From positions 4,940 through 68,939 of the forward strand of contig CAYXGG010000004.1 in the NCBI GenBank assembly GCA_964464475.1: a stretch of 64,000 bases of DNA, written 5' to 3'. Numbering within the stretch: the stretch's first letter is position 1; each line of letters begins with the position of its first letter. The DNA comes from an uncultured Planctomycetales bacterium (GTDB taxonomy: Bacteria > Omnitrophota > Gorgyraeia > Zapsychrales > JAHFFX01). The position numbers and the translations under genes were made by a program. The notes below the pieces were generated by a model, which worked only from the letters and a program-made list of their open reading frames with translations, ran no database searches and had not been told where the DNA came from. This document shows positions 20,503-50,276 of the stretch, one piece after another.

Positions 20503-22365
20503 TTACAACTCAGGCGCCCACTCCACGTAAAACCCATCCACTTTATCACTGGATGAAATACTAAAACCGCGCCGTTTAAAAATACTAAGCATAAGAACGT
20601 TATTTTTCAACACATGCGCGTATAGCTTTTGAATTTTCTGAGTCGTCGCTGCTTTCAGCAAAATATCACACAGAAAGCCGCCGATCCCGAAACCTTGATA
20701 ATCCTCTTTGACAACCAATCCTATTTCCGCGGAACCATCCGGTTGCCGGACGTAGCGACCCAAGGCCACCATTTGCGCGTACGGTTGCCAGGAATCGAAT
20801 CCCGCGATGGCCATGTCCTGATTGTAATCAACAGACACCCGCGCCTGGGCCACGGCATGCGGCAGGGCATCAACATACGACAAATACCGTTGATAAATCG
20901 TCTGGGGGCGATGACTGTAGAAGAAATCTTGAATGGCCTTTTCATCATGCGGGCGCAACTCACGAAAATAAACGGTCCTATCTTTAAAATTCTTCGAATA
21001 AGGGATCAACTCCTTGACCGGACTGTGATCGTCCTTAATAGTCATTTGGTCAATATAAACATAATGTTTTTGTTTTAAATAACTTAACAACTCATCCCTA
21101 AATTTAGGATGCGCGATCTGAATCAATGCCAATGCCCGCTCCCGAATATTTTTTCCGTGCAAATACGCGATCCCATATTCCGTAACAATATAATGCACGT
21201 CGGCGCGCGAAGTGACGACACCGGCTCCAGGTTCTAAATGCGTGGCGATCTTAGAAATCGTCCCGTTTTTCGCCGTGGACGCAAATGCGAGAAAGGATCT
21301 CCCCCCCGGAGAACGTTTAGCCCCGCGGACAAAATCCACCTGACCGCCAAACCCGCTGTAAAAAACCGGCCCCAAACTATCCGAACACACCTGACCCGTC
21401 AAATCGACCGCGATGGCGGAATTAATGGAGACCATGTTTTGATTCTGACAAATCACGAAGGGATCATTGGTGTATTCTGAGGGAAAGAATTGAAAATCCA
21501 CATTGCGATTGATGACGTCATACGTCTTTTTTGTCGCCAAAACAAAACTCAAGACTGACGCCCCGACATTGATTCCTTTTTTCTTATTGGTGATGTTCCC
21601 GTTCAAATATAATTCCGTCACGCCATCGGAAATCATCTCGGTGTGGATCCCTAAATCATTTTTGTTTTTCAAATTTTTCAAAACGGAATCCGGGATATTC
21701 CCGATCCCCAACTGCAAGGTGTCCCCATCGCGAATGAACTTAGCCAAATGCGAACCGATTTGCTCTGAAACAGCATCCGGCTCTCCCTGAGGGAATTCTT
21801 TTAGCGGTTCATCATAGCGGACCAAATAATCAAACGCGGACAACGGCAATACCGCTTTCCCTAAAGTAAACGGCATTTGGGAATTAACCTGCGCGATAAC
21901 AATATCGGCGGTCGCGATCGCGGCCGGTAGAATACTGACCTCAACGCCCAATGAGACCTCGTTACGTTCATTAGGGGTTGAAACCTGAACCACCGCCGCG
22001 TGCACGGCCAACTGTCGGGTTTTAATCAGCTGGGGGACTTCTGACAAAAAGACCGGAATATAATCCGCTTGACCGCGCGCCACCGCGTCCCGCACATTAT
22101 GCCCGATAAAAAACGCATTGTGCCTAAAGGCGAAAGCGTATTCCGGACGAACGTACGGCGCCTCCCCCGTCGCCAACAAATGAACAATTTCATTGTCACG
22201 AAAAAGTTCAGCATTACGGATCAACGCTTGCACGAGGTGAGATGGAACACCGCAACCGGCGCCTAAAAGGATGCGCTGACCTTTATGAATTTTTTTAATC
22301 GCCGCATCCGCGTCCAGCCATTGCGGATGACGAATAGGATATTGATATTCTTGAAAATACTGCAT
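20503..22365 (-). CDS. Acetyl-CoA hydrolase/transferase family protein fused to a C-terminal GNAT acetyltransferase domain
   Basis: N-terminal region matches acetyl-CoA hydrolase/4-hydroxybutyrate CoA-transferase (LLGAGCGVP..., GIHTEM...). The C-terminal ~150 aa carry a GNAT-like Q/R-x-x-G-x-G/A motif. Confidence 0.7.
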   Translation of the reverse strand: MQYFQEYQYPIRHPQWLDADAAIKKIHKGQRILLGAGCGVPSHLVQALIRNAELFRDNEIVHLLATGEAPYVRPEYAFAFRHNAFFIGHNVRDAVARGQADYIPVFLSEVPQLIKTRQLAVHAAVVQVSTPNERNEVSLGVEVSILPAAIATADIVIAQVNSQMPFTLGKAVLPLSAFDYLVRYDEPLKEFPQGEPDAVSEQIGSHLAKFIRDGDTLQLGIGNIPDSVLKNLKNKNDLGIHTEMISDGVTELYLNGNITNKKKGINVGASVLSFVLATKKTYDVINRNVDFQFFPSEYTNDPFVICQNQNMVSINSAIAVDLTGQVCSDSLGPVFYSGFGGQVDFVRGAKRSPGGRSFLAFASTAKNGTISKIATHLEPGAGVVTSRADVHYIVTEYGIAYLHGKNIRERALALIQIAHPKFRDELLSYLKQKHYVYIDQMTIKDDHSPVKELIPYSKNFKDRTVYFRELRPHDEKAIQDFFYSHRPQTIYQRYLSYVDALPHAVAQARVSVDYNQDMAIAGFDSWQPYAQMVALGRYVRQPDGSAEIGLVVKEDYQGFGIGGFLCDILLKAATTQKIQKLYAHVLKNNVLMLSIFKRRGFSISSSDKVDGFYVEWAPEL

Positions 22366-22390
22366 AACACTAACCTTTCTTATTTCCTAC

Positions 22391-23449
22391 TTAACATATT
22401 CTTGGTAATTGTTCCCCGCTTAGCATGTCCAGTATCCGCACGACACCCATCCGACTAACCATCGTGACCCGCGGATTCCCCTTTTCGGTAACTTCCCCGA
22501 TAAGGGTCGCGTTTTCTCCTAATGGATCCGCCCGTAAAATACCTAAGACCCGGTCAACATCCTTACGGTCAACCAACAAAACAAAACGCCCTTCGTTGGC
22601 AACGGAAAGTGGATCCAATCCCAGAATTTCACAAGCCCCCCGCACATCGTCTCGGACCGGGACCGCTTTTTCTTCAATGTTAAACACATGTCCACTGGCC
22701 ATGGCCAATTCGTTAAGAGCGCTCACCAACCCACCTCGGGTCAAATCGCGCAGGCAATGAATCTTGACCTTGGCCGCAAGTAACTTCGCGACCAACCCAT
22801 TCAAGGGGGCGGAATCACTTTCGATCGCCGATTCAAACTGCAATCCCTCACGCGCCGAGAGGATCGCCATACCGTGGCGACCCAAATCACCGCTGACAAT
22901 AATTTGATCACCCACAGCGATACGCGTTGGCGCTATTGTCATCTCCTGTTCAATTACCCCAATCCCCGCCGTAGTAATGAAAATCTCATCTCCCTTGCCC
23001 CTATCGACTACCTTCGTATCGCCGGTGACAATCCGGACCCCCGCGCTGTCCGCCGCCCGGCGCATGGATTGCAACACGCGCCATAATCTTTCCATCGATA
23101 GCCCCTCTTCCAAAATAAACGCGACCGATATATACAAAGGACGGGCCCCCACCATGGCCAAATCATTGACAGTACCGTGGATGGATAGCGACCCGATATC
23201 ACCCCCGGCGAAGAAAATCGGGCGGACAACAAACGAATCCGTAGTCATGGCCACTCGCGCGTTGGGGTTAGCTAAGACCGCCGCGTCATGTGCGGATTCT
23301 AACGACGGATTCGTAAACGCGGGAACAATCAATTTATCCAACAATTCTTTGGATAATTTTCCTCCTCCGCCATGCGCCAACAATAAATGACGATGATTAG
23401 TTAAAGGCATCGGGCAAGAAACCTGTAGAAGTGATTGATCATTGATCAT
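22391..23449 (-). CDS. hypE: Hydrogenase maturation protein HypE
   Basis: AIR-synthase-like fold with the conserved C-terminal PRIC. Confidence 0.9.
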
Positions 23450-24561
23450 GACGACACCTGTTTATTTGTCGGCAAGGGCAGATCACGATAGCGATAATAC
23501 GCCGAGCAGGCCCCCTCAGAGGAGACCATCGTCGCGCCCAACGGATGTTCCGGTGTGCATTTTGTACCAAAAGCCGGACATTCGGTCGGTTTAATCGTTC
23601 CTTGCAGTACCAACCCACTTAAGCAATCTCTCGGTTCCGCGATTTGACGCGCACTTAAACCGAAACGTTTTTCCGCATCGAAGGACGCGTAGTCATCGCG
23701 CAATCCTAAGCCACTGTCGTTAATTGCCCCAATGCCCCGCCACTGCCGGGTGACAATTTGAAAAACCGTCTTGATCAATTGTTGAGCTGGGAGATTCCCT
23801 TCGGTCCGTACCGAACGCGCATACTGGTTCTCGACCTCCCATCGTCCTTCTTCCAACTGTTTAACGCAAAGATACACCCCATGCAAAATATCTAACGGTT
23901 CAAACCCCGTGACCACGATGGGCACGCGATACCGTGCGGCGATCGGCCCATATTCATGGCATCCCATGACCGTGCACACATGCCCCGCCGCCAGAAAACC
24001 CTGCACACGATTTTCTTTAGACGACAAAATAGCTTCCATGGCCGGAGGGACCAATACGTGAGAAATTAAAACGGAAAAGTTCTCAACGCCCTTTTCCTTG
24101 GCCTGGTAAACCGCCATAGCGTTGGCTGGGGCCGTCGTTTCAAAACCGACCGCCAAGAAGACCACTTGTTTTTGTGGGAACTTTTGCGCCAGCGTGACGG
24201 CGTCTAACGGCGAATAAACCACCCGCACATCACCGCCCCGCGCTTTGACCGATTGCAAATCCGTCGATGATCCGGGGACCCGAAGCATATCTCCAAAGGT
24301 GCAAAAAATCACCTCTGGCCGCGAAGCAATTTCTACGGCCTTGTCAATAATGTCCAGCGGCGTCACGCAAACCGGGCATCCCGGGCCATGGATCAGTTTG
24401 ATCTGCTCCGGCAGCAATCGATCTAATCCGAATTTAATGATCGCGTGGGTCTGCCCTCCGCAAATTTCCATTAATGACCAAGGGTGGGTCACGACCCGCT
24501 TGATTTCTCTGACAAACCGATGGACTTCATCCGCATTGCGGTACTCATCTAAATATTTCAT
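23446..24561 (-). CDS. hypD: Hydrogenase maturation protein HypD
   Basis: [14 protein letters not shown] and FE..P.. motifs of HypD. Confidence 0.9.
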
Positions 24562-24571
24562 GATTAAGTCG

Positions 24572-24814
24572 TCACTTTATCTCTTCCAATTCATCCATTG
24601 CTTTTAAATAATCAAAGACTTTCTGGGCCTCCACCGGATCGACGGTGCTGATCGCAAACCCGACATGCACAATCACGTAATCACCGACTTTGGCTTCAGG
24701 CACGTAAGCTAACGATACTTCTTTGCTGATCCCCCCAAAGCTGACTTTTCCCGCTCGGGTCAATTCTCCCTCCTGCGTGATTTCCGTGATGAGACCCGGA
24801 ACCGCCAAACACAT
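24572..24814 (-). CDS. hypC: Hydrogenase maturation chaperone HypC
   Basis: Internal start MCLAVPG (the conserved HypC N-terminus); about 80 aa. The track ORF has a spurious N-terminal extension overlapping hypF. Confidence 0.85.
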
Positions 24815-24815: not shown

Positions 24816-27128
24816 TTACCCTCTCTTTCCTTGATGCGCCGCCACCCATAATTGGCCCACCGCCAAAGCGCCGTCATTCACCGGTAACTTTTCCGGCAAA
24901 AAAACGCTAAAACCTTCTTTTTGTAAACGGGATTTCGCCTTCCCACTCAAATACGCATTCTGAAAACAGCCTCCGGAGAGAACAATATCCTCCATCCGGA
25001 TCTCCCTCGCCACCGAGACCAAAATCTCGACTAACGTGTCATGAAATTTCCGGCTAATTTGGGCTGAGTCCGTTTTTAAATTCAAATCAATCAAAATGCC
25101 TTGCAGCATGGCACCCCAATCAATCCGCCATTGTTGATCTTTATCAATTAATAAATCAAATGAATAAACTCCCTGGTCCTCGGTCCCGCGCAACACCTGT
25201 TCCAAACGTTCCGCGCCCTGCCCTTCGAAAGAAGCACGGGAAACCAATCCCAACAAAAACGCCACCGCATCATATAAGCGACCGACGCTAGTCGTCAATG
25301 GTGAATTAAAAGAACGTTCCAGCATTTGCTTGATCGCATTAATTTCCACTGCACTGAAAGCGGCTTTAATACTTTCCGGAAATGTCGACCCCAATTTAGA
25401 TTTGTTCCATTCAACAATGAGCCCTAGCGCGCTGCGCCGGGGTTCACGGACCGCGACTTCCCCACCCGGCAAAGGAAAAGGACGAAAGCTCGCCACTCGT
25501 TGATATTTCGCCCCATCCACCGTCAAGAATTCTCCCCCCCAGACGGTTCCGTCCGGCCCCCACCCCGTCCCATCCCAAGCCACGCCTAAAACAGGTCCCG
25601 TCAATTGCTTTTCAGCCATGACCGCCGCAACGTGCGCGTGATGGTGCTGCACGCGGTAAATAAGTTTCCCTAATGGCTGAGCTAAACGAGACGACACATA
25701 ATCAGGGTGTTCGTCAATAACGACGTCTTTGACTTCAGCGTCGTGAAGTTGGCGCAAACTGCTTTGGCAATCCTGGAATGATTTGACAGCCAATTCATTT
25801 TCCAAATCACCGATATGCTGACTGAGAACGATTCTATTCTCAAGCCCCAGCGCAACGGTATTCTTTAACTGCCCGCCTAAGGCCATCCGGCCCGATACAT
25901 TCACCGTAACCTCCAATGATACCGGGGCATAACCCCTGGCCAGACGAATCGGCAAAGTCTGCTTATCCAAACAGCGCACGATCGAATCATCCAAGGCTCT
26001 GACAATAGGACGGTCATGGACCAAGAAAATATCGGCAATTTGGGCTAACCGGTTTAACGCGTCAATGTCCTCAATGCATATCGGTTCTTCGCTAACGTTA
26101 CCACTGGTCATGACCAACGGTCGATCTACAATTTGCATCAATAAATGATGCAACGGCGTGGTCGGCAGCATCACCCCTATATTCTGATACCCCGGAGCAA
26201 TACCCGACGCTAACGTCACCCCTGCCGTTTCTGCCTGGCAGGCCACAATCACAATCGGCGCCGCCGCGCTGGTCAGCACCTCTGTTTCGAAAGCCGACAA
26301 CTTCGCGTAACGCTGAACTTCAACAACATTTTTCATCATCAACGCGAATGGTTTATCCGGGCGCTGTTTACGTTCCCTAAGTCGACGAACCGCATCCTCA
26401 TTCGTCGCGTCCACCGACAGTTGAAAACCTCCCAGGCCCTTAACAGCGACGATCTTACCTTGAATCATTGCTTCCGCCGCCTGTTTTAAAGCATCCCCTT
26501 GGTGTGCCAAAACCTTCCGCGATGAATCCCAAAGCGCCAACTGCGGACCACAATCCGGACAGGCGTTGGCTTGCGCATGAAAACGTCGGTTTAAAGGATC
26601 GTGATACTCTTCAAGGCAACGCGGGCACATACTAAACTGACGCATCGTCGTGTTGATCCGATCATAAGGCACGGATTCAATGATTGAAAATCTCGGACCG
26701 CAATGCGTGCAATTGGTGAAAGGATAATGATACCGTCGATTGGCAGGATCAAAAATGTCCTTAAAGCATTCCTCACAGGTCGCTAAGTCCGGAAGGACCG
26801 GCGCGGATTTTACCCCTTCATGAATACTGGCTCGGATAACAAAACGTTCCTCCGGGTGGCAACATTGTTTTGTCTTTTCCCAATCTGTTATCTTTGAAGG
26901 AAAAGGAAGCTCCGTTAATAGCCGATGTTGAAATAGCCTTAGCTGTGATCGCTCTCCCTGAACTTCTAACTCAACCCCGGCAGAGGTGTTACTTACCTGA
27001 CCGGTCAAGCCGAATTCATTGGCCAACCTTAACACAAAAGGTCGAAAACCAACTCCTTGGACATATCCGGTTAGCACATAATGCCAGCGTTCTCGCCGAG
27101 AATTGAGAAGACCTACAGGTAGTGACAT
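24816..27128 (-). CDS. hypF: Carbamoyltransferase HypF
   Basis: Acylphosphatase domain (VQGVGFRPFV), two CxxC...CxxC zinc-finger pairs, then YrdC- and Kae1-like domains; 770 aa. Confidence 0.9.
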   Translation of the reverse strand: MSLPVGLLNSRRERWHYVLTGYVQGVGFRPFVLRLANEFGLTGQVSNTSAGVELEVQGERSQLRLFQHRLLTELPFPSKITDWEKTKQCCHPEERFVIRASIHEGVKSAPVLPDLATCEECFKDIFDPANRRYHYPFTNCTHCGPRFSIIESVPYDRINTTMRQFSMCPRCLEEYHDPLNRRFHAQANACPDCGPQLALWDSSRKVLAHQGDALKQAAEAMIQGKIVAVKGLGGFQLSVDATNEDAVRRLRERKQRPDKPFALMMKNVVEVQRYAKLSAFETEVLTSAAAPIVIVACQAETAGVTLASGIAPGYQNIGVMLPTTPLHHLLMQIVDRPLVMTSGNVSEEPICIEDIDALNRLAQIADIFLVHDRPIVRALDDSIVRCLDKQTLPIRLARGYAPVSLEVTVNVSGRMALGGQLKNTVALGLENRIVLSQHIGDLENELAVKSFQDCQSSLRQLHDAEVKDVVIDEHPDYVSSRLAQPLGKLIYRVQHHHAHVAAVMAEKQLTGPVLGVAWDGTGWGPDGTVWGGEFLTVDGAKYQRVASFRPFPLPGGEVAVREPRRSALGLIVEWNKSKLGSTFPESIKAAFSAVEINAIKQMLERSFNSPLTTSVGRLYDAVAFLLGLVSRASFEGQGAERLEQVLRGTEDQGVYSFDLLIDKDQQWRIDWGAMLQGILIDLNLKTDSAQISRKFHDTLVEILVSVAREIRMEDIVLSGGCFQNAYLSGKAKSRLQKEGFSVFLPEKLPVNDGALAVGQLWVAAHQGKRG

Positions 27129-27147: not shown

Positions 27148-27483
27148 TTAACTTTCTATTTGCGTCGTAATGGTATTACCTTGTACCACTTCCACATTGC
27201 GGGACAGACAAGACGAACACATCAACAAATGGTGGTCTTCCACCGGTCCGCGTTGGCCGCAAGCGCGGCACAGGACTTCCACCGGGACCTCTTCAAAATC
27301 AATGGGTATCCGCTCCAGCGCGGTCGATTGCGTACGCATTTGGTAATGAAACAGGACCGAATCTTTATGCAAATGAAACATCTCTCCCACACGGACACGG
27401 ATATTTTTTGGTTCTCCCTCTTGTTTCTTCAAGTCCGCTAAGATGACTTCGATAATCTTTTCTGTAAATCCCGCTTCATGCAT
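27148..27483 (-). CDS. hypA: Hydrogenase nickel-incorporation protein HypA
   Basis: MHE N-terminus and a C-terminal CxxC...CxxC zinc site (CRACG...CSSC). Confidence 0.85.
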   Translation of the reverse strand: MHEAGFTEKIIEVILADLKKQEGEPKNIRVRVGEMFHLHKDSVLFHYQMRTQSTALERIPIDFEEVPVEVLCRACGQRGPVEDHHLLMCSSCLSRNVEVVQGNTITTQIES

Positions 27484-27940
27484 AGACCACCTGACCGTTT
27501 ATCCAAGCCGTTATTTTCTCCAAAGCCGAACGCAACCTTAACTTTCCCAAAAATGAAAGCTGATCTCCAACATCAAAATGCTCACCCCGAATCTGGCAAA
27601 TATACATTTCCCATTCTTTTTGATAAAGTTGTCGGCCTAATCGGCCCAATAATTCCGGGCTAAGATGATGCGATGATGCCAAAGCTGGCCCATCATGGAC
27701 CTCTAATTTCCTCAGCAATACATCGTTACCCCCAACCGCCGCGTCAATAAACAACAACCGATCATATTTGATCGCTTCTTCCAACAGCTCAATCTGCAAC
27801 TGCTGGCAGGTCATCACCGAAACCCCCGGCAGGTTTTCTTTTTGCAATGCAGCGGCCGCCGCCCACCCCAGACCGTCATCCTGGCGCATGGGATTACCGT
27901 ATCCAATAATCAAGGTGTTAACCACCGCGTTTGATGACAT
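27476..27940 (-). CDS. hoxW: Hydrogenase maturation endopeptidase (HoxW/HycI family)
   Basis: Start likely at the internal Met (MSSNAVVNTLIIGYGNPMRQDDGLG), the conserved G.GN...DDG.G signature. The track ORF extends to 28027. Confidence 0.75.
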   Translation of the reverse strand: MSSNAVVNTLIIGYGNPMRQDDGLGWAAAAALQKENLPGVSVMTCQQLQIELLEEAIKYDRLLFIDAAVGGNDVLLRKLEVHDGPALASSHHLSPELLGRLGRQLYQKEWEMYICQIRGEHFDVGDQLSFLGKLRLRSALEKITAWINGQVVYA

Positions 27941-29357
27941 TGACCAGCTCTCCCTTCTGATCAAGAATTTCAACCAACAACGGCATCGCCCCGATAGAAT
28001 GGGTTGAACAAGACAAACAAGGGTCATAACAACGGATCGCGGCTTCGACCCGATTGAGCGCGCCTTCTTTAATTGATGGACCGCGCACGTATTGCCGCGC
28101 GACTTCCAACACCGACCGATTCATCGATGGATTATTCTGTCCCGTGGCGATCAGCAAATTGACTTTCTGTAAAATACCATTTTTGTCCGTCGTGTAATGA
28201 TGGAACAAGGTCCCGCGCGGGGCCTCAGAGCAACCGATCCCTTCCGTCCGGTTTCGCTGAGCGTGCGCCTGCAATTGATCCCCCAACACCTCCGGATCAT
28301 TAAGAATATCCCGCACCAGTTCAATACAATTAAGAACTTCAACTAAACGCGCGTAATGAAAGAAAAATGAACCGTTGACCGGTAGTCCTTTATTAATCGC
28401 TTTAAATTGCAGGAACTCCTCTTGCGCCAACGGCGTTCGGATGCGACTGGCGACGTTAAGTCGCGACAAAGGACCGACCCGATAAAATCCATCCGGGTAA
28501 CCCAAAGGTTTGTAATAAGGATATTTTAAATAGGACCAATCAATCGGTCTTTCGGCAATAAACGACAAATAGTCTTCCGGTTTCAGCTGATCTCCTAATA
28601 TCTTTCCCTGACTATCCACCATCCTCAAGTTGCCTTCATATAATTCATGTTCACCTTGAGGCCCAACGAGTCCCAAATGCAAGGTGGGAAAATTCGCGAA
28701 AGTGCTTACCTCTTCGGGATGAGCGGCGTGATAGTCTTTTATTAATTTGATCCCCTGGCGAGTGGTCTCTAACACTTCCGGGACCCAATCGAGGAGCGCC
28801 TGGCGATTTTCCGGCGTTAAACGATAAAGAAAACCTCCCGGAACAATACCCATGACGTGGATCTTTTTTCCGGTCAACCGTTCGCTTAATTCCTGACCAA
28901 ATTTTCGCAAGCGGATTCCCCGTACGGCCAAGTCCGGAAACTTATTGGCGATCTCAATAATGTTTCTTTTCTCCGGTTCCGCGTCCCAACCGAACAAAAA
29001 ATCCGGCGAGGACAAATGAAAAAAACTTAACGCATGCGATGAAAGCACCTGCCCCAAATGCGTCAAGCGGCGCAACAACGTCCCTGTGTACGGGACCTTC
29101 ACCTGCATGATCATCTCGCACGCTTTAGCACTGGCCACCGCGTGGCTGACCGGACAAATCCCGCAAATGCGCGGGGTGATCGATGGCATTTCCGTAAAAA
29201 GCCGCCCTTCACAAAATTTCTCAAAACCACGAAATTCATTCACGTGAAAACGTGCGTCTTTAACCTGGCCGTCTTTGTCCAACTGCAAAGTAATTTTCGC
29301 GTGCCCTTCAATGCGGGTCACCGGACTGATGGTGATTTTCTGTTCCTGGTTAACCAT
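27918..29357 (-). CDS. hoxH: Bidirectional NAD(P)-linked [NiFe] hydrogenase large subunit HoxH (group 3d)
   Basis: N-terminal RIEGH and CGICP ... C-terminal DPCLSCSTH Ni-Fe ligand motifs, with a C-terminal extension for HoxW processing. True start likely MVNQEQK (29357); the track ORF extends to 29420. Confidence 0.9.
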   Translation of the reverse strand: MVNQEQKITISPVTRIEGHAKITLQLDKDGQVKDARFHVNEFRGFEKFCEGRLFTEMPSITPRICGICPVSHAVASAKACEMIMQVKVPYTGTLLRRLTHLGQVLSSHALSFFHLSSPDFLFGWDAEPEKRNIIEIANKFPDLAVRGIRLRKFGQELSERLTGKKIHVMGIVPGGFLYRLTPENRQALLDWVPEVLETTRQGIKLIKDYHAAHPEEVSTFANFPTLHLGLVGPQGEHELYEGNLRMVDSQGKILGDQLKPEDYLSFIAERPIDWSYLKYPYYKPLGYPDGFYRVGPLSRLNVASRIRTPLAQEEFLQFKAINKGLPVNGSFFFHYARLVEVLNCIELVRDILNDPEVLGDQLQAHAQRNRTEGIGCSEAPRGTLFHHYTTDKNGILQKVNLLIATGQNNPSMNRSVLEVARQYVRGPSIKEGALNRVEAAIRCYDPCLSCSTHSIGAMPLLVEILDQKGELVNVIKRGG

Positions 29358-29889
29358 ATTTGATCCCCCGATCTGGCCCCCATACTGGTACTCTATCCTG
29401 CAGCACTTCAGAGACCACATAAAATATCAAATCCGCCGATGGCGGACATCCCGGCAGATAATAATCGACTTTAACGACCTGATGAAGCGGAACGACCCGG
29501 TCAATGAGTTTCTGGATTTCAGGTGAGGTCGGCACGTGCCCTTGGTCATTGCTCTCTGCCAAAACATAAGACCGTTCCAGCACGTGCTCTTTAGAGACAG
29601 TATTGCGTAACGACGACACATTCCCCGTGACCGCGCAGTCACCGAAAGCAATGAGGATCTTACTCCGCTCGCGGATATGCCGGATCTCACGCCAATGTTC
29701 GTCGCTGGCGACCGCCCCTTCCACCAGCGTCACATCCACATAGGGAAATTCTTTGCCATCAACAATAGGGCTACGCACAATGTCCGCCAACTTGACCACT
29801 TCCAAAATCCTTTCGTCCATATCCAACAACGACATGTGACACCCCGAACATCCCGCGAGCCAAACCGTAGCTAATTTTTTTTTGATCAT
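29350..29889 (-). CDS. hoxY: [NiFe] hydrogenase small subunit HoxY
   Basis: GCSGCH ... GCPP Fe-S ligand motifs of the short group-3 small subunit. Confidence 0.85.
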   Translation of the reverse strand: MIKKKLATVWLAGCSGCHMSLLDMDERILEVVKLADIVRSPIVDGKEFPYVDVTLVEGAVASDEHWREIRHIRERSKILIAFGDCAVTGNVSSLRNTVSKEHVLERSYVLAESNDQGHVPTSPEIQKLIDRVVPLHQVVKVDYYLPGCPPSADLIFYVVSEVLQDRVPVWGPDRGIKYG

Positions 29890-42682: not shown

Positions 42683-42955
42683 CTACTTACTTTTAGAATT
42701 CTCGACTGGACCAATCGTTTTATACGTTTCTTCCGTTGGTTCAGTCGCCGCCTCGACCGCCTTTTTGCCATAATCGTTCAAGTCATGCTGCCCTTGCTCT
42801 TTTTTAGGTTTGTCACTAACATGACAATCAATGCATTTGGGTTTCGCGGAAGGGAAAACTTTTTTGTAAATCTTGATTTGATCAACGTCCGCGGAAGCCA
42901 CCCCTCCTAACAAAAATACCGACGTTAGCATCATTAAGAATAATTTCATGATCAC
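42683..42955 (-). CDS. Small periplasmic monohaem cytochrome c (MtoD-like)
   Basis: Signal peptide and a single CIDCH; 90 aa. Confidence 0.6.
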   Translation of the reverse strand: MIMKLFLMMLTSVFLLGGVASADVDQIKIYKKVFPSAKPKCIDCHVSDKPKKEQGQHDLNDYGKKAVEAATEPTEETYKTIGPVENSKSK

Positions 42956-42966: not shown

Positions 42967-44550
42967 TTATGTTAGCTTAAGCATTGATTTCTTAAATCCC
43001 CACCACAACAAAAAGACGGCTTCGACCGCCACAAATATTCCAACCCACGCCGTTCCACCCGCCCCGGCCCCATAACTATGTAACCCTCTCCCCAATAAAA
43101 AATTAACGCCATACCACGTCATCAAAACTAACTGAAATCCAATAATGGTTCCGATGGCCAACCCTTGATCCGTCAATTTTCCCGCGTAACGTAGATGCAA
43201 AAGAGCCATATAACCTAAGAAAGTAATGAGCGCCCACGTTTCCTTAGGGTCCCACCCCCAAAATCGCCCCCAAGACTCATTAGCCCACACGCCTCCCAAC
43301 ACGGTCCCAATGCCTAGCGTCAAACTTCCCAATTGTAAGAGGCGCAGCATGGCCTGCCCGGAGGCTTGTTCATCGGGCGAAGATAATCTTCCCAGCGAAT
43401 TTAAAATTATGTGGCGATGCCCCAGGGCCATGGCCAAACCAAAGACCCCATAGCTCGCCACGATCGTCAAAACATGCAACGTCAACCAATAATTACTGCG
43501 CAACACCGGCACCAGCACCCCTAAAGATTTCTCCACTGGTAATAAATCGCCATACAACAAAACCAAAGCCGCCGCCAAAGAGCCTGACGTCAAAACAAAA
43601 TAATTCTTTCCCTTCCCCCAGAATCCGGCAATACAAAGCACCAGAATCCAACTCATAAAAATAATGGATTCATACATGTTGGACACCGGTGGCCGCTCCA
43701 AAATCAAACTACGCAAAACCATGCCAACACTGTGATAAATAAATCCGGCTATCAGTAACCCACCCCCCAGCTTCTTTAACCCATCCTTACCGGCGTTCAT
43801 CATTAACAAAATAAAACTACACAAATAAATCATCCAACCCATTTGAAAAGGACGTAATAAATAATACTGTCCCTCCAGCCCAATCATCTGGCGCCACTTT
43901 TGTTGAGTGGTGACGTGCGTTGCCGTGTTCCAGGCCTGCAATGATTTCTCGTTAACGGATAAGCCTTGCGCCACTAAAGCCTTAAAAGTCATTCCGGATT
44001 CGTTCTGTATCACCCAAGGAGAGAGCCATTCCTCCGATGGTGCTGGCACCACCTTAAATAAATCACCGCCGCTTAACTGATCCACCAACAACAAGCGTCC
44101 ATAAACGGCTTCTGCTTTTTGCTCCAAAGCAGAAGGACGTTCGTCTTGATCCCTTTTCTTCTGGGATGAACCGACCAGATTAACTAACTCACCGACTTTA
44201 GGACGTAATTCTCGATAAGAAAAATATTTTTGTTCCCTATCCAGCAACAACGATTCCTTCAAAGGGCGATAGTCCAAAGCAATCATCTTCTCATCAAGAA
44301 AACTCTCCGGTTTAGACATACGCGCCCAAATAAAGCTCACCGCGCTTTGTCCTACAAAACGTTCCTTACCCGTGATTTCTCTAAGTGTTTCGCGAGCAAA
44401 CGATTCAAAAGATTTGACCCGACCGCCGTGAAGAATTGGAATCGCCCCGGCCGCCTTCTCAAAAGAGTCGCCGCGCAGCCAGGCAACGGATGCCAGCGCC
44501 AAGAAAAATCCGATGCCGACCATCAGCACGTTAAATCTTTGATTGTTCAT
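42967..44550 (-). CDS. ccsA: Cytochrome c biogenesis protein CcsA/ResC (System II haem lyase subunit)
   Basis: WGWDPKETWALITF (the WWD domain) and conserved His residues; polytopic. Confidence 0.85.
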   Translation of the reverse strand: MNNQRFNVLMVGIGFFLALASVAWLRGDSFEKAAGAIPILHGGRVKSFESFARETLREITGKERFVGQSAVSFIWARMSKPESFLDEKMIALDYRPLKESLLLDREQKYFSYRELRPKVGELVNLVGSSQKKRDQDERPSALEQKAEAVYGRLLLVDQLSGGDLFKVVPAPSEEWLSPWVIQNESGMTFKALVAQGLSVNEKSLQAWNTATHVTTQQKWRQMIGLEGQYYLLRPFQMGWMIYLCSFILLMMNAGKDGLKKLGGGLLIAGFIYHSVGMVLRSLILERPPVSNMYESIIFMSWILVLCIAGFWGKGKNYFVLTSGSLAAALVLLYGDLLPVEKSLGVLVPVLRSNYWLTLHVLTIVASYGVFGLAMALGHRHIILNSLGRLSSPDEQASGQAMLRLLQLGSLTLGIGTVLGGVWANESWGRFWGWDPKETWALITFLGYMALLHLRYAGKLTDQGLAIGTIIGFQLVLMTWYGVNFLLGRGLHSYGAGAGGTAWVGIFVAVEAVFLLWWGFKKSMLKLT

Positions 44551-46367
44551 AGCGACTCCTCGTCTTTACCGCTAGGCGTCTTTTTGGCGGACGCACTTAG
44601 TTTCTTACCGTAAAACTGAAAGAACGCTCCCAAGAAAATGAGCGTGGAACTGTTATAAATCAAACCAATCCCTGGATTCTTAGCCACCGTAAAAATGGAA
44701 CCTTCTCCTTCGTGAGGATCCTGAAAGAAAGAAGATTGAAAAATTTTGTAACCGCGGTAGGAGAGTGGCTGATTCATGCTTATAGTTTTTTCCATGACTA
44801 ATTTCTCGGCAGGATCTTCGAGCACAACCTTACTTTCATAAGAAGCCGCCTGCTGCGTTCCCGGATAATCAACTTTTTGAAAATCTTTTAGCGTTAACGT
44901 AAAGGGTAATTTAGACATGATCGGTACCAGGGCGAGTCTCCAATCACCGGTCCCGATGGCTAAATCCGTGTCTTTACCTTCTATAATCCAAGCTCGTTTT
45001 AGAGTTCCCTGGTCCAGCGCTGCAATTTCAACCGCCGTAGCCCCTTTTCCCGGATCCGGAGAAGGAATTATTTTTGTTTCCACTACCGCCCGATCATAGA
45101 TGGCTTCAATCTTAAATACGGCATCCATCCAGCCAGCGCTGATGGATTCATTAATGTTTACTTTCCCGCGCTTGCTATCTGCGCCTTTAATTCTCGACTG
45201 ATAATGGAGCGCTCCCGTTTCATCTCGCCAAAAGGCCAAATAACTGTTAAGACTAACGTCATCAACATTCGCGTTTTGGGCCGTAAATTCAATTTGCACG
45301 GCTAACTGCTCCACCTGACTGTCTTGATGCAACATTTCAAAATGGGGAAATAAAGCAAATTTCAGAACTGGCTGGGATTTTCCTTCAGGAGAAACCAAAT
45401 CAAATTTGACCGCTGGATTAGGCTCTCCGCTATCAACGAGATTAACCACACCTTCTTTGGCCACGCGCGCATGCGAGAGGTAAACAAGATTGCGGATCAC
45501 CCATCCCGAATTCCCTAGGGGAGCGGCAACAATATTTTCTTCGGTAAGCGGAAATTCGAACCAATCTGATTTCTCATCAAATTTAAACCGTAATTGAGTT
45601 TCCTCTGCGACTTCCTCGGGAGGAGCCTGGGGTAAAAGCATCAAATCCAAAGGACCCAAGGATTTATAAAAACCTTCCGGATTAAACGGATCATGTTCTA
45701 CCAACCAAATTGATTCCTGCATCTTGGCCTGAGCACTGGATACGGCAACCTTGACGGCTAAATTCACGTCGGCTTGCGAATCTCCCGGCTTCACTTCATA
45801 ATCTCTGGCGGCGTGATCCAAAATATTTGTCACTTTAAAATCTACCGTTGGATTCTTCTGAGCGTTCTTCGATTTTTTATTCTCTAAAGGACAAAAATTG
45901 GGATCAATCCGATGCCGCGGGGCCAACACGGCATGGGTTCCTTCCCTCACAGGAACCCATTGGTCTTCCATGCCGGGTGACGAGACTCGAATCTGCGCGC
46001 CTCCTAACATCAACACATTAGCTGATTGTTGTTCTCTTAACGTCAACTGGCCCTCCTGGCCATAGGTACGCGTGATTAACGATCCCAGCAGCAAACCTAA
46101 AATGCCAATATGAGTGACCACAAAAGCAGCGTGTTTTTTCTGAAAAGGTAAACGTAATACCGTCGCGCAAAATATATTGATCCAAAGCAACGCTAACAGA
46201 AAATCGAACCAACGCGTTTGGTAGACCGATTTCTGGACTAAGGCCGTTCCATAGCGCGACTCCAAAGTAGTCGACGTGATCAAAAGACCCATCAGGGCTA
46301 AACAAATGATCACGGCAAAATGGACCGAACCTAATTGACGAATAAGCTTCATGGACCAACGCACCAT
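44547..46367 (-). CDS. ccsB: Cytochrome c biogenesis protein CcsB/ResB
   Basis: ResB-type topology (N-terminal TM, large periplasmic domain, C-terminal TMs), overlapping and translationally coupled with ccsA. Confidence 0.8.
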   Translation of the reverse strand: MVRWSMKLIRQLGSVHFAVIICLALMGLLITSTTLESRYGTALVQKSVYQTRWFDFLLALLWINIFCATVLRLPFQKKHAAFVVTHIGILGLLLGSLITRTYGQEGQLTLREQQSANVLMLGGAQIRVSSPGMEDQWVPVREGTHAVLAPRHRIDPNFCPLENKKSKNAQKNPTVDFKVTNILDHAARDYEVKPGDSQADVNLAVKVAVSSAQAKMQESIWLVEHDPFNPEGFYKSLGPLDLMLLPQAPPEEVAEETQLRFKFDEKSDWFEFPLTEENIVAAPLGNSGWVIRNLVYLSHARVAKEGVVNLVDSGEPNPAVKFDLVSPEGKSQPVLKFALFPHFEMLHQDSQVEQLAVQIEFTAQNANVDDVSLNSYLAFWRDETGALHYQSRIKGADSKRGKVNINESISAGWMDAVFKIEAIYDRAVVETKIIPSPDPGKGATAVEIAALDQGTLKRAWIIEGKDTDLAIGTGDWRLALVPIMSKLPFTLTLKDFQKVDYPGTQQAASYESKVVLEDPAEKLVMEKTISMNQPLSYRGYKIFQSSFFQDPHEGEGSIFTVAKNPGIGLIYNSSTLIFLGAFFQFYGKKLSASAKKTPSGKDEESL

Positions 46368-46378
46368 GGATCAACCCT

Positions 46379-47425
46379 CTAAGTTGTTACCGTCATCTTT
46401 TCCAAAACGGATGACACTGAAGTCATTTTTTGACGAAATTGGATCATCTTTTGCTGAATGATCTCTTCTACCTGGCTTTTGGCCGCGAGTCGTAACGCCG
46501 CGTTATCTTCCAAGACTCTATCCAAATCATCGAGACTCAGGAGCTCAACCCCCTCAATATCGGCCACTTTGGGATGAATGTTGCGAGGCATCGAAATGTC
46601 AACCATGATTAACGGTCGGGATCTCCCTCTCATCACTTTGCGAACCAACTCGGTTTCAATTAAATAATGCGGGGCCCCCGCAGAACAAATACAAGCATCC
46701 ACGTCCCTCAACACTTCTAATATCTCCCAATAAGAAACCGCCTGACCCTGAATTTGCTGTGCTAATTCCTGAGCCTTTTCTTCATTTCGATTCATCACGT
46801 ACACCTTCGCCACTGATTTCAAATTCAACTGTTGAATAGCCAACGACGCCATTTTCCCCGCCCCTAAAATCAAAATTTTCTTGTCCTTTAGCGATTGCAA
46901 ACGTTGTTGAGCCGCCGTGACCGCAGCCCAACTCACCGAAGCGCCCCCCACGCTTATGTTTGTTTCCGCTTGAGCCTTCTTGCCCGCGCGAATCGCTAGG
47001 TTAGTTAAAATATTTAATTGGCGGCTCATCATCCCTTTTGAACGCGCCAACTCGACCGCGTCCTTAAATTGACCCAGGATCTGCTTTTCTCCCATGATCA
47101 AAGAATCTAACGAACACGCCACGCGAAATAAATGATCGACCGCCTCCTCATCCGTATAAAAATAAAAAGCCTCCTTCACCCATGGCTCAAAAAGTACTTT
47201 TTTTAAGGACAGCAAGTTCCCAAAAACACGCTCTTGGGCATTATCAACCGCATCGACATAAATCTCGGTTCGATTACATGTCGAAATCACAAAACATCCC
47301 GCAATCGCAGGGTCACACTTAAGCTCATTAATAAACAATTCTCGTTCTAAAGGACGCAAGAAAAACTTCTCCCTAAAATCAACACTCGATGTCTTATGGT
47401 TAATACCAAGCACCCTTAATCCCAT
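46379..47425 (-). CDS. hemA: Glutamyl-tRNA reductase HemA
   Basis: ISTCNRTEIY active-site Cys motif and an NADPH-binding GAG.MA Rossmann segment. Confidence 0.85.
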   Translation of the reverse strand: MGLRVLGINHKTSSVDFREKFFLRPLERELFINELKCDPAIAGCFVISTCNRTEIYVDAVDNAQERVFGNLLSLKKVLFEPWVKEAFYFYTDEEAVDHLFRVACSLDSLIMGEKQILGQFKDAVELARSKGMMSRQLNILTNLAIRAGKKAQAETNISVGGASVSWAAVTAAQQRLQSLKDKKILILGAGKMASLAIQQLNLKSVAKVYVMNRNEEKAQELAQQIQGQAVSYWEILEVLRDVDACICSAGAPHYLIETELVRKVMRGRSRPLIMVDISMPRNIHPKVADIEGVELLSLDDLDRVLEDNAALRLAAKSQVEEIIQQKMIQFRQKMTSVSSVLEKMTVTT

Positions 47426-47436
47426 TGGCGGGCCTC

Positions 47437-47976
47437 CTAATTGTTGACGGCTGGCGATTCCTTAACTTTTTGCCAAAGTTCCTGACGTTCAGCACTTTTT
47501 AATTGTTCACGGATAGTTCCCAGCACACTGTCTTTCTCAATCTGCAGATGATGACGCAATAAACAAAATACATAGGTTCCTTCGTCATGAATTTTCCGAA
47601 CGATTTTTTTGCGAGAATGACGCTTCGGCAATTCTTCAACCGACACGCACAAATCATTCAAATGTTTAATTTTATTTTCCAATTCGAAATGCTCGGCTTT
47701 CAAAAACTGCAGGAGCGGCACTAAGCTAGGAACGCGTTGACTGAGGTAGGGAAAAACAATTTTATCCTGAATGGCTATCAACTCGATCAACTCTTCAGCC
47801 AAACAGCGAGCAATGCTACCCGCGGATCGAATGTTCCTCTTCTCCAGAAACTTGCCCTCATAGTGCAAATTAGATAACGCGGAATACAACTCATCGGTCT
47901 TATGCAAAATATTAATTTGCCGTGAGTTTAATAAAGAAATTAAATTTTGATCATGAATAGGCATAATGTCCGCCAA
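47437..47976 (-). CDS. Hemerythrin-like (HHE cation-binding) domain protein
   Basis: Spaced H...E / H..xxE pairs (EHFELENKI, LRHHLQIEKD) in a helical 179-aa protein. Confidence 0.45.
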   Translation of the reverse strand: MADIMPIHDQNLISLLNSRQINILHKTDELYSALSNLHYEGKFLEKRNIRSAGSIARCLAEELIELIAIQDKIVFPYLSQRVPSLVPLLQFLKAEHFELENKIKHLNDLCVSVEELPKRHSRKKIVRKIHDEGTYVFCLLRHHLQIEKDSVLGTIREQLKSAERQELWQKVKESPAVNN

Positions 47977-48084
47977 GGTAATTCAATGGCGGCATTATAT
48001 TAGGGAACCTATTTTATGTCTGTGACGAGCGTCACAAAGGGAGAAAAAAGTTCATTATCAAAAATAAACGGGTGAAGGGTTCTT

Positions 48085-48774
48085 TTAAGAGGATAGTAAC
48101 CGCTCAGCAGCGAGGATTTGAATACGGCGAGATTTTGTTCGAATGATTTTCTTCTGGGCCAGGCGGCTTAAATGACGGCTCACGGTTTCCCTGGCCAGCC
48201 CTAGCCTTTGAGCTATTTCTTCGTGAGTCAAAATGACGTTAACCTCTCGAACGCCTTGCTCATCAAGGTGACCATCGGAAGCATCTAACAAAAACTTGGC
48301 GATGCGTTGGGCGGGATCATCCAAACTCACCGATTCAATGAGTGAACAAAATCGGCACAATCTCTTGGCCAGAATTTGATTTAACTTCTTGGCCAACAAA
48401 TGGTTGGATTCCAGCAATTGGGTATAAACAGAGCGTGGAACCGCCCACACTTTTAAGGGGGACATCGCTTGTCCTGAGGCTGAACAGCTCCATTTGGTGG
48501 CGCCGGGGTTGCAAGCACACGATTCCCCAGGTTCCAAAACTTCTAAAATCTGCTCTTTGCCTTGGGCCGAATGTCTGAATATTTTCATGCGACCAGTTTG
48601 AACAATAAAAATTTTCTCGCAGGGGTCGGTCTCTGTAAAAATAAGTTCTCCTTTAGCATAAACTTCTAATTTAACCTGCTTTTTAATTTTTGACAGTTCT
48701 TTGGCGGGAATCCCTTGAAACAAGGATAAATTCTCAAAACTCATCGCGAGCGTGTCCTTCGCTTGGAATTTCAT
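48085..48774 (-). CDS. Crp/Fnr-family transcriptional regulator
   Basis: cNMP-binding beta-roll followed by a C-terminal HTH (THEEIAQRLGLARETVSRHLSRL). Confidence 0.8.
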   Translation of the reverse strand: MKFQAKDTLAMSFENLSLFQGIPAKELSKIKKQVKLEVYAKGELIFTETDPCEKIFIVQTGRMKIFRHSAQGKEQILEVLEPGESCACNPGATKWSCSASGQAMSPLKVWAVPRSVYTQLLESNHLLAKKLNQILAKRLCRFCSLIESVSLDDPAQRIAKFLLDASDGHLDEQGVREVNVILTHEEIAQRLGLARETVSRHLSRLAQKKIIRTKSRRIQILAAERLLSS

Positions 48775-50276
48775 GATTTTCGACTTTTGACCCTTTCAAA
48801 ATCAATATACCCGTGTTCCGGATCAAGCGAAACGAGTTTAACGAGACATTTCTGGCCGACATCCAAACCCGTTTCCGCGCTAATCACCCGCCCTTCCGCG
48901 GGAATCGATTCGAGCCGGACATAAACACCTTTGGCCGACGCACCGGTTACAATCGCTTCAAAAACTTCCCCAATCCGTTTTCTCAAAAGCATGGCCGCCG
49001 CAACTTTGCGCATAAACCGTTCCACTTTTCTTGCCGATGCGGAACGTTCCGTGCACCAATCAGCAATCGAAGCCAATTCCGTACGCGTATACGGAACCGG
49101 TTCTTTTTCAATCACGGATTTCATCAACCGCTGAATAATCACATCAACGTACCGACGATTAGGTGCGGTGGAATGAGTATAATCCTGAACGGCTAAACCA
49201 AAGTGACCGATCTTGCTTTTATCTGGCTCTGCCAACACATACTCGCCCTGCCCTAACAATTTGATGATGGTTAGAGAAAGGTCCGGAAAATGGTCCGGAT
49301 CTTTTTTACCCTGCGCCAACATGAATTCCGACAACGCCTTAGGGTCCGGATCCTCGGGCAACTGATATCCCAATTCCAAAGCAACGTCTCGAATTCGAGA
49401 CCAACGCTCAGGCACGCGCACAACACGCTGGATCATCGGAATTCCATTGCGTTCCAAAAACCAAACCATTGTGCCATTAGCGGCAATCATAAAATTCTCG
49501 ATCAGAATTCGCGCCGCGTTCTTAACTTTAACAACGAGATCCACCACCGATCCATCCTGCATGATTGGCGAAGCTTCAATCGTTTCCACTTCCAAAGCGC
49601 CTTGCGCCAAACGCCATTGACGCATGCGTTCCGCCGCCTCCGACTGCAACCGAAGCTGTTCCTCTAATCCTTGAATTTTAACTATTTTCTCCGGAACAGG
49701 ACCACGTTCTTCCAGCCATTCTCCGACCGACTCATAAACAAGTTTCGCCTTATTGTGCACCAAAGCGCGAAATACATCCGAACAGCGAACAGATCCATCT
49801 TTTAAAACAAAATATTCCATGACCACCGCCAGGCGATCCTCACCCTCCTTTAGAGACGTCAGCCCGGCGGACAAACGGTCCGGCAGCATGGGAAACACTT
49901 CCACGCCGGTATAAACAGAAGTCCCATTCTGATGCGCATGGCGGTCAGTCGCCGTACTTTTCTCAACGTAAGCATCAACATCGGCAATAGCAACCAAAAC
50001 CCTAATTTCCAAATTAGGCGCTCTTTCCACAAATTCAATCTGGTCCAAATCTTGAGAATCAATATTGTCGATAGAAGACCAGGGCAAGGCCCTTAAATCC
50101 AGCAACTGGGCGCTGCGCGTTTTGACCTCGAGATGATTGGCGGCAAAGCCATGAACCTCCCGGACCACCGCCTGAGAAAAAAGAGGTACAAATCCGTAGT
50201 TAGTCATGGCCTGCAACGCAATCGTGTGCAGATCAATAGAAGAATTTTTTTGTGGTGCTTCACGCATAGCAGTCAT
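48771..50276 (-). CDS. RNB-family 3'-5' exoribonuclease (RNase II/R-like) with C-terminal S1 domain
   Basis: RNB catalytic region and a C-terminal S1 fold (GEVFEAIVTGASAKGVYVRLE...). Confidence 0.7.
   Translation of the reverse strand: MTAMREAPQKNSSIDLHTIALQAMTNYGFVPLFSQAVVREVHGFAANHLEVKTRSAQLLDLRALPWSSIDNIDSQDLDQIEFVERAPNLEIRVLVAIADVDAYVEKSTATDRHAHQNGTSVYTGVEVFPMLPDRLSAGLTSLKEGEDRLAVVMEYFVLKDGSVRCSDVFRALVHNKAKLVYESVGEWLEERGPVPEKIVKIQGLEEQLRLQSEAAERMRQWRLAQGALEVETIEASPIMQDGSVVDLVVKVKNAARILIENFMIAANGTMVWFLERNGIPMIQRVVRVPERWSRIRDVALELGYQLPEDPDPKALSEFMLAQGKKDPDHFPDLSLTIIKLLGQGEYVLAEPDKSKIGHFGLAVQDYTHSTAPNRRYVDVIIQRLMKSVIEKEPVPYTRTELASIADWCTERSASARKVERFMRKVAAAMLLRKRIGEVFEAIVTGASAKGVYVRLESIPAEGRVISAETGLDVGQKCLVKLVSLDPEHGYIDFERVKSRKS

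Follow-up and report, generated by a model that had tools for sequence, protein, structure and literature searches.

A 30-kb single-strand gene run of an Omnitrophota bacterium in which a predicted Mtr-type electron conduit adjoins pyruvate oxidation and Hox hydrogenase genes

The closest described counterparts of the locus reported here are the MtrAB/MtoAB/PioAB electron conduits (Shewanella Mtr, structure 6R2Q; the mto clusters of Sideroxydans and Gallionella), ImcH of Geobacter sulfurreducens, and the nifJ operon and hoxEFUYH genes of Synechocystis PCC 6803. The locus is a run of genes on the minus strand, read from position 50276 down to 20503, in a 64,000-nucleotide stretch of an uncultured bacterium placed in the Omnitrophota (assembly GCA_964464475.1, contig CAYXGG010000004.1, positions 4,940 to 68,939); this whole stretch is called the window, and coordinates refer to it unless a related locus is named. 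Bacteria of this phylum are widespread, mostly ultra-small and uncultivated. We consider it probable, albeit with reservations, that the run is a head-to-tail join of two separately conserved gene blocks, and that it provides the electrons of pyruvate with two outlets, H2 or acceptors outside the cell.

Like the MtrAB/MtoAB/PioAB conduits, the locus places a cytochrome of the DmsE/MtrA family beside a barrel of MtrB fold, clustered with a monohaem cytochrome c and a multihaem protein that would act on the quinone pool. It departs from them in that its MtrA-like cytochrome has eight haem motifs instead of 10, its barrel lacks a match to PF11854, and MtrC and OmcA are missing; moreover, its inner-membrane partner is of the ImcH type and not CymA or CbcL/MtoC, and hemA and ccsBA are embedded in the gene group. 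With ImcH of G. sulfurreducens, compared through the published architecture of that protein, the inner-membrane partner shares a length of about 500 amino acids, three N-terminal transmembrane (TM) helices, a CX3CH motif after the third of them (TM3), six CX2CH motifs and a NapC/NirT-like region. However, the window gene adjoins MtrAB-like genes, while a 2018 survey saw no mtrAB or mtoAB genes beside imcH (PMC6295460).

Synechocystis and the window have in common a pyruvate:ferredoxin/flavodoxin oxidoreductase (PFOR), a dihydroorotate-dehydrogenase-like (DHOD-like) flavoprotein and a Hox hydrogenase of five subunits. The Synechocystis nifJ operon (sll0741-sll0743-sll0744) pairs PFOR with the DHOD-like protein and is co-induced with hox at low oxygen; cyanobacterial Hox accepts PFOR-derived electrons, and the path from PFOR to Hox is an established fermentative route (PMC11368403), just as an initial annotation, made from the letters of the window alone, had stated. 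No statement on the role of the DHOD-like partner was found among the papers searched. The window differs from Synechocystis in that these genes form one uninterrupted string with hoxW, hypAFCDE and a gene for a CoA-transferase/GNAT protein, as they also do in at least four further Omnitrophota-type contigs, and in that the string is placed behind the conduit in this genome. In Bacillus, hemA (hemA-hemX) is linked to cytochrome c assembly genes. There, as here, a haem-entry enzyme stands beside a CcsA-family protein; in the window, however, the linkage extends to multihaem cytochromes, and HemA is short and lacks the dimerisation domain.

Some genomes of the class Omnitrophia encode homologues of metal-reducing periplasmic cytochromes (PMC10066038). 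Beyond such a coarse mention of cytochromes, and of FLEET in sister lineages, a search of the literature on Omnitrophota with ImcH, Mtr or extracellular electron transfer yielded no description of this cluster. All components belong to known families. New are an Omnitrophota-restricted family of MtrB-like proteins that Pfam does not see, the pairing of MtrAB with ImcH, the presence of hemA inside a conduit operon, the fused PFOR-DHOD-hox-hyp string and, in this lineage, its position behind the conduit.

Gene content and packing of the run

The run comprises 25 minus-strand genes, which form an unbroken series of long open reading frames (ORFs) in the ORF listing and in scans with Pfam and NCBIfam. 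The initial annotation had described a single-strand run in which every junction is short or overlapping; the ORFs bear out the former, but the junction between the crp gene and the hemerythrin-like (Hr-like) gene measures 108-120 bp and contains a promoter-like site. Between 47964 and 20503, all 23 junctions are 44 bp or shorter when likely start codons are used (junction table), and eight of them are overlaps. The gaps on either side of the permease gene, at which the two blocks meet, amount to 18 bp (ImcH-like/permease) and 44 bp (permease/PFOR), and the promoter scan revealed nothing promoter-like in them. The genes of the run are packed too tightly to accommodate classical promoters or terminators between them, which speaks for the initial annotation. 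Consensus scans over the cluster yielded promoter-like sites at chance level and terminator-like sites that were mostly intragenic, with the exception of 48022-47994 and 50488-50470; a tRNA scan of the 64-kb window found none, and an Rfam scan gave no RNA-family match within the cluster.

The upstream boundary is likely formed by paired stable hairpins at 50400-50490 on the minus strand (fold -45.2 kcal/mol, z -2.64; terminator-like site 50488-50470), which would represent the terminator region of the preceding gene. The two hairpins are similar, GC-rich and arranged in tandem (GCCTGCC...GGCAGGTAC) between a gene for a CxxCxxCC-domain protein and the RNase gene that heads the run; they may constitute a repeated element or a bidirectional terminator. 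Downstream of the last gene lies structured sequence (z -1.84) that is non-canonical as a terminator.

The head gene (48771-50276) had been taken for a Crp/Fnr regulator; it encodes an exoribonuclease of the RNase II/R family with RNB and S1 domains (PF00773, E 5e-79; PF18614; TIGR02063 RNase_R at 290 bits, below its cut-off). The regulator gene proper (48085-48774; PF00027, PF13545) overlaps it by 4 bp. Apart from this shift the earlier gene list was largely right: profile matches confirm hemA, ccsB, ccsA, nifJ, the DHOD-like gene, hoxEFUYH, hoxW, hypAFCDE and the acetyl-CoA hydrolase (ACH)-GNAT gene. It had omitted the monohaem cytochrome gene at 42683-42949, and hypB is missing from the window.

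Block A (47964-38068) starts with the Hr-like protein of 175 amino acids (47437-47964; the longest ORF, from TTG 47976, has 179), for which PF01814 (HHE cation-binding) went undetected even at E<=5. It may be hemerythrin-like at a level below the Pfam threshold: it shares only 34-39% identity with the PF01814-bearing protein found at the same position in the related locus L001 (loci from relatives bear L numbers), and some of the metal-ligand His residues are replaced. For this protein, the small monohaem cytochrome, the permease-like protein and the barrel, Pfam searches at E<=5 produced spurious matches only. Glutamyl-tRNA reductase catalyses the first committed step of haem synthesis; the hemA gene of the window (46379-47425) encodes a short version of it, with 348 amino acids and devoid of the C-terminal dimerisation domain (TIGR01035, 351 bits, model positions 3-337 of 416). 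The HemA genes called in L001, L002 and L003 have the same short length (346-348 amino acids). Next come ResB/CcsB (44547-46367; PF05140, E 1.6e-21) and CcsA/ResC (42967-44550; PF01578; TIGR03144 at 164 bits, beneath its cut-off of 187.6), the pair for cytochrome c maturation and haem handling of system II. Thiol-reduction partners of the CcdA/ResA kind are not clearly present; homologues of the 213-amino-acid permease-like protein of the window carry PF13386 (DsbD_2) but are named Ni/Co transporters.

Four genes make up the predicted conduit. The first (42683-42949) encodes a small secreted monohaem cytochrome c of 88 amino acids in an MtoD-like position, with a signal-like N-terminus and a single CXXCH motif (CIDCH). 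The second (41810-42667) specifies the periplasmic MtrA/DmsE-family cytochrome, a protein of 285 amino acids with a signal sequence; it falls slightly short of the TIGR03508 cut-off (182.5 bits against 192.2; E 1e-53), and MtrA is its nearest relative among sequences of solved structures (6r2q_A, E 3e-40). The third (39678-41795) encodes a protein of 705 amino acids without a Pfam match; PF11854 was not matched even at E<=5. Only 32 homologues were found among 5.8 billion proteins, and in species-representative genomes they occur almost exclusively in metagenome-assembled genomes of Candidatus Omnitrophota. An AlphaFold (AF2) model built on 19 homologues (pLDDT 82.6) depicts a large beta-barrel, whose top Foldseek match in the PDB is Shewanella MtrB (6r2q_B; TM 0.62/0.67, E 1e-11), with TonB-dependent receptors at about 0.4. 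With an adjoining beta-barrel of about 26 strands taken as the mark of MtrB/PioB, the protein qualifies through its fold and not through its sequence; a relative that is 22% identical, from the distant locus L097, does match PF11854. On the strength of the model, we regard the 705-amino-acid protein as a probable MtrB-like barrel of an Omnitrophota-restricted family that profile libraries miss.

The fourth gene (38068-39666) encodes the ImcH-like protein of 532 amino acids, a putative inner-membrane multihaem quinol oxidase/quinone reductase. Its TM helices (52-70, 87-105, 135-153) are followed right after TM3 by the CX3CH motif (CGTTCH at 167) and by the six CX2CH motifs. The sequence similarity seen was to NapC/NirT (PF03264) and NrfH, and the ImcH assignment rests on architecture: published members of that family have three N-terminal TM helices, a CX3CH motif beside TM3, six CX2CH motifs and about 495-519 amino acids (PMC6295460). 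Within the genes from 50276 to 37408, haem motifs occur only in the monohaem, MtrA-like and ImcH-like proteins. A surface cytochrome of the MtrC/OmcA type was not detected (no PF22113 match among window ORFs of at least 100 amino acids, save a weak one of the MtrA-like protein itself), nor does the window encode a terminal periplasmic reductase. Taken together, these sequence features support a genuine Mtr-type module, and the outer-membrane electron conduit proposed in the initial annotation gains weight from the MtrA relationship and from the barrel model.

Block B (38049-20503) opens with the gene for the 213-amino-acid protein (37408-38049), which had been called hupE. PF04955 (HupE/UreJ) was not matched at E<=5, and the homologues, which bear PF13386, go under the names Ni/Co exporter, NicO, RcnA or TauE. 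With five hydrophobic segments and the motif HAILGPDH, it is a probable Ni/Co permease of the UreH/NicO/RcnA kind; this HxxxGxDH-like motif is the sole feature shared with HupE/UreJ. A supply of nickel is a plausible function, and a homologue also lies upstream of PFOR-hox in L043 and L044. The permease gene is followed by nifJ, encoding a homodimeric PFOR (33803-37363; TIGR02176, 1816 bits; Pfam), and by the DHOD-like gene (32800-33789; NF005741, 500 bits).

Next in order are hoxE (32252-32773; NF005747 at 216.5 bits against a cut-off of 224; Pfam), hoxF (30606-32255; Pfam), hoxU (29886-30596; NF005745 at 350 bits, over the cut-off of 333), hoxY (29350-29889; Pfam) and hoxH (27918-29357), whose relatives carry PF27537. 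HoxH contains RICGIC at 63 and DPCLSCSTH at 445, followed by a C-terminal extension of 26 residues, and the gene for the maturation endopeptidase HoxW adjoins it (27476-27921, start codon approximate; TIGR00072, E 1.3e-19). By its five subunits and these motifs, the enzyme is classed as a bidirectional NAD(P)-linked [NiFe]-hydrogenase of the HoxEFUYH type, putatively of group 3d. Pfam scans identified hypA (27148-27483), hypF (24816-27128), hypC (24572-24814), hypD (23446-24561) and hypE (22391-23449). A hypB gene was not found in any part of the window, and the corresponding blocks of L042, L043 and L125 lack it too, which leaves the Hyp set incomplete. The last gene of the block (20503-22365) fuses an ACH/CoA-transferase to a GNAT acetyltransferase (PF13336, PF02550, PF00583).

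Conservation of the two blocks in relatives

A search anchored on the barrel, run with a close alignment of eight sequences, retrieved 37 loci, 34 of them with a full barrel match. The MtrA-like gene stands next to the barrel gene in 30 of these 34 loci, and an ImcH-like gene is present in 21. HemA is found in 19 of the 34 (16 of the 21 that extend at least 3 kb upstream), CcsA in 14 and a homologue of the monohaem cytochrome c likewise in 14. In all, the core of block A recurs in about 35 Omnitrophota loci. The position of ccsBA is free: the pair may precede hemA, follow the ImcH-like gene, or separate hemA from the monohaem cytochrome gene. The RNB gene beside crp is not kept. The closest relative, L001, with which L004 is identical, has the order ccsBA, moeA-mobA-moaD, crp, hemerythrin, hemA, mtrA, barrel, extra cytochromes with a Rieske protein, ImcH-like, PFOR, DHOD and CoA-transferase/GNAT; its locus contains no hox or hyp genes. 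The ImcH-like gene and PFOR lie within 50 bp of each other in the window as well as in L001/L004, with proteins that are 45-71% identical.

For block B, the anchors were HoxH and the DHOD-like protein, and the counts for the latter come from 80 metagenome loci. The complete string PFOR-DHOD-hoxEFUYH-hoxW-hypAFCDE-ACH/GNAT recurs in L042, L043 and L125; L044 keeps the order up to hypD, where the locus stops, and L124 shows the part from hoxH to ACH/GNAT. Protein identities, where compared (L042-L044), range over 43-80%. In 37 of 38 metagenome loci PFOR stands upstream of the DHOD-like gene; in eight of 33, two or more hox/hyp genes are found no more than 10 kb away from the DHOD-like gene; and the ACH/GNAT gene closes the block in L001, L042, L043, L045, L124 and L125. 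Upstream of block B, L042 and L043 possess response-regulator genes and no conduit, and in L044 a conduit match is absent from the roughly 5.7 kb upstream of PFOR. Relatives do not share the gene order of the run as a whole; they conserve block A and block B individually.

Some loci bear on the history of the join. In L045, a hoxE remnant (7941-8258; 77 alignable residues, 64% identical) sits between the DHOD-like and CoA-transferase/GNAT genes, a deletion scar which shows that this lineage has lost its hox-hyp genes. A NarL/GerE-type regulator encoded upstream of block A in L002 (6755-7399) is 60% identical to one encoded upstream of block B in L043 (27-671), and the single-domain regulators that accompany them are 42% identical. 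The shared regulator and the scar hint that the join of A and B may be ancestral and later eroded, as opposed to a recent fusion. On a distant high-GC soil contig, L097 (4438-19908), PFOR-DHOD lies between a string of MtrA, MtrB_PioB, ResB, CcsA and cNMP-binding-protein genes and an ImcH-like gene with NnrS; here, pyruvate oxidation and an Mtr-type conduit have been brought together independently and in a rearranged order. Hydrogenase or hyp genes occur within 10 kb of a conduit in L022, L030, L032 and L039. Two of these loci have further neighbours of their own: L022 (228-6939) carries on one strand hypD-hypE and nrfA, for a cytochrome c552 nitrite reductase, and then the MtrA-like and barrel genes, and in L039 (6854-8796) genes for a UbiA prenyltransferase and a polyprenyl synthase (quinone-type biosynthesis) are located directly upstream of the MtrA-like gene, with HydBC-like NADH-module genes further upstream.

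Promoter and Crp-family regulator

The spacer between crp and the Hr-like gene holds a candidate class II-like promoter (47994-48036, minus strand). It consists of the palindrome TGTGACGCTCGTCACA (48036-48021), 21 nt, and TATAAT (47999-47994), a spacing that sets the centre of the box near -41.5. This is the only perfect TGTGA-N6-TCACA box in 64 kb, with a chance expectation of about 0.06 for a perfect 10-base match. The same box, with a 21-nt spacer and TAnnAT, also follows crp in L001, L011 and L024, although the spacer sequences are unrelated. The site is the only evident promoter for the run. A Crp-like box with one mismatch at 38931-38946, inside the ImcH-like gene, was rejected, given that it agrees with chance expectation and has the wrong spacing to any -10 hexamer.

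FNR oxygen sensors have an N-terminal Cx2Cx5C cluster plus a central Cys residue and recognize the box TTGAT-N4-ATCAA. The regulator of the window has a recognition helix of the CRP type (RETVSR), and its nearest solved relatives are Crp/Fnr-family chains that include CRPs of the Mycobacterium tuberculosis type (3d0s, 3i54). It lacks both the Arg residue that contacts cAMP in CRP and the N-terminal Cys cluster of FNR. In an alignment with its orthologues (window 48085-48774; L001 5774-6556; L011 816-1517; L024 8075-8770), C52, C86, C88 and C97 of the effector domain (motif ...CACNPG...) are invariant in all four proteins; their location corresponds to the cAMP-binding region of CRP. From these features we class the protein as CRP-like rather than FNR, and its four Cys residues could plausibly form a redox, metal or Fe-S sensing site. 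The likeness to class II promoters of CRP/FNR thus covers the 16-bp TGTGA-N6-TCACA palindrome 21 nt before the -10 hexamer and a regulator with a CRP-type RE..R helix, while the missing cAMP Arg, the missing FNR Cys cluster and the four effector-domain Cys residues set the window regulator apart.

A search for a promoter and an Fnr box at the head of the cluster had been proposed with the initial annotation. It did turn up a box with TATAAT, conserved in three relatives, but the box is CRP-like. Since TGTGA box, RETVSR helix and CRP-type relatives all mark the regulator as CRP-like and not FNR-like, the O2/NO-responsive control that had been suggested is not established. Locus L086 (1251-6254) has a gene for an FNR-like protein whose N-terminus carries a Cys cluster, together with three perfect TGTGA-N6-TCACA boxes. 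One of these adjoins the FNR-like gene and the other two lie upstream of PFOR; of the latter, one, directly upstream of PFOR, has a 21-nt spacer and TAGAAT.

Electron flow, alternative readings and neighbouring features

Our reading builds on gene identities, packing, a promoter conserved in relatives and the separate conservation of both blocks, from which we infer co-transcription, an outward flow of electrons and a link to the quinone pool. Because no gap exceeds 44 bp among the 24 genes that follow the Crp-type promoter, read-through from it probably co-expresses blocks A and B. PFOR would oxidise pyruvate and thereby give rise to reduced ferredoxin and NAD(P)H, and Hox would discharge these as H2, while the CoA-transferase/GNAT protein would act on the acetyl-CoA made by PFOR. 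Were an external acceptor at hand, a quinone reductase encoded outside the window would pass electrons to quinol, from where they would travel via the ImcH-like protein and the monohaem cytochrome c to MtrA/MtrB and out of the cell. In this scheme, the ImcH-like protein exchanges electrons with the quinone pool and the eight-haem MtrA-like cytochrome is predicted to thread the MtrB-like barrel; Hox working in reverse could feed electrons from H2 into the same chain.

A number of observations weigh against this reading. Since GC skew is one-sided, and uniformly negative, across the whole window, strand agreement alone is weak evidence; co-orientation is partly due to this skew and to the compact spacing found everywhere. 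A hairpin with a T-run at the 3' end of ccsA (43030-43005; z = 0.44, indistinguishable from shuffles) and a weak promoter-like site just before the cytochrome genes (42995-42966) could split the run ahead of the latter. PFOR-DHOD follows the conduit in only one of the 27 barrel loci with at least 6 kb of downstream sequence (L004, identical to L001), and parts of a conduit lie near PFOR-DHOD in only one of 24 metagenome loci (L097). With the join missing from nearly all relatives, it is not generally selected. The window encodes no NADH- or ferredoxin-dependent enzyme that reduces quinone. Finally, a monohaem cytochrome c without MtrC resembles the Mto clusters of Fe(II) oxidisers and renders the direction of flow ambiguous. 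The initial annotation had named unlinked genes in close relatives as the finding that would overturn its supercluster, and with block B free of a conduit in the available upstream sequence of L042-L044 this holds for the supercluster as a whole. The join is a lineage-specific arrangement of two blocks of known kinds, and it suggests that they may share a function.

The alternative that survives best, and to which we accord a lesser yet appreciable likelihood, is that two unrelated leading-strand operons of a compact genome adjoin each other by accident and are used independently, one for cytochrome respiration and the other for fermentation. The separation of the blocks in nearly all relatives fits it, as do the short gaps throughout the window, a same-strand run that extends well past the cluster (15815-55161) and the free variation of composition and order around the cores, as seen with ccsBA. 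It does not readily account for the closest relative, which keeps the join at 45-71% protein identity despite missing hox and hyp genes, or for the distant L097, in which PFOR-DHOD has come to lie among MtrAB, Ccs and ImcH-like genes independently. Likewise, it leaves unexplained that the window blocks are separated by gaps of just 18 and 44 bp with nothing promoter-like in them and that hydrogenase or hyp genes lie close to the conduit in four further loci. If the blocks were nevertheless independent, the finding would shrink to ordinary neighbours of known function.

We think it improbable that the conduit works inward, as MtoAB and PioAB do, such that electrons drawn from Fe(II) or Fe(0), from a cathode or from a partner cell reach the quinone pool and PFOR and Hox run reductively to synthesise pyruvate or evolve H2. 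Both enzymes are reversible, and the set of monohaem cytochrome c, MtrA-like, MtrB-like and NapC/NirT-related proteins without MtrC does parallel the mtoD-mtoA-mtoB-cymA/mtoC clusters (PMC6295460). The ImcH type, by analogy, argues for outward flow, as the 2018 survey encountered ImcH homologues only in Fe(III) reducers and regarded them as quinol oxidases (PMC6295460). The step from Fe(II) to ferredoxin or H2 would be steeply uphill, with no machinery for it in the window, and electron uptake from Fe(II) driving H2 evolution, a variant of the reverse direction that the initial annotation had entertained, is in our judgement energetically unlikely. Pyruvate oxidation also fits the end of block B, where a CoA-transferase that consumes acetyl-CoA is encoded. 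Least credible of all is a periplasmic respiration of nitrite or N-oxides without outer-membrane transfer, in which the barrel has another role: nrfA adjoins the MtrA-porin genes in L022, NnrS adjoins the ImcH-like gene in L097 and the NapC/NirT-type domain is common to the ImcH-like protein and NrfH, yet the MtrA-like and MtrB-like genes are adjacent in nearly all barrel loci, the nearest solved fold and cytochrome sequence are those of MtrB and MtrA, and a terminal periplasmic reductase is not encoded in the window.

The reading of two joined blocks with two electron outlets can be extended, speculatively and with considerable doubt on our side, to the proposal that a single transcript under Crp activation covers the 27.5 kb from 47964 to 20503 and co-expresses haem synthesis, cytochrome maturation, the MtrAB conduit with its ImcH-type quinol oxidase, PFOR and Hox. 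Ultra-small Omnitrophota would then use extracellular acceptors or partner cells to respire pyruvate or H2, by means of a self-contained, portable gene set governed by a cysteine-rich redox switch of the CRP family. For cultivation, the locus offers hypotheses: pyruvate or H2 as the donor, Fe(III), Mn(IV) or an electrode as the acceptor, a supply of nickel, and induction at low oxygen. The compact cassette for haem synthesis, cytochrome maturation and the conduit could serve the engineering of extracellular electron transfer.

Elsewhere in the window, a c-di-GMP-I riboswitch is predicted on the plus strand at 12178-12244 (RF01051; its 41.1 bits exceed the gathering score), upstream of a plus-strand operon (12428-15691) for a DUF4900 protein and a pilin-like protein that bears an N-terminal methylation motif. 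On the minus strand (9790-11952), a gene for a HerA-like helicase (PF05872, E 2e-225) abuts an ORF of 180 amino acids of unknown function.

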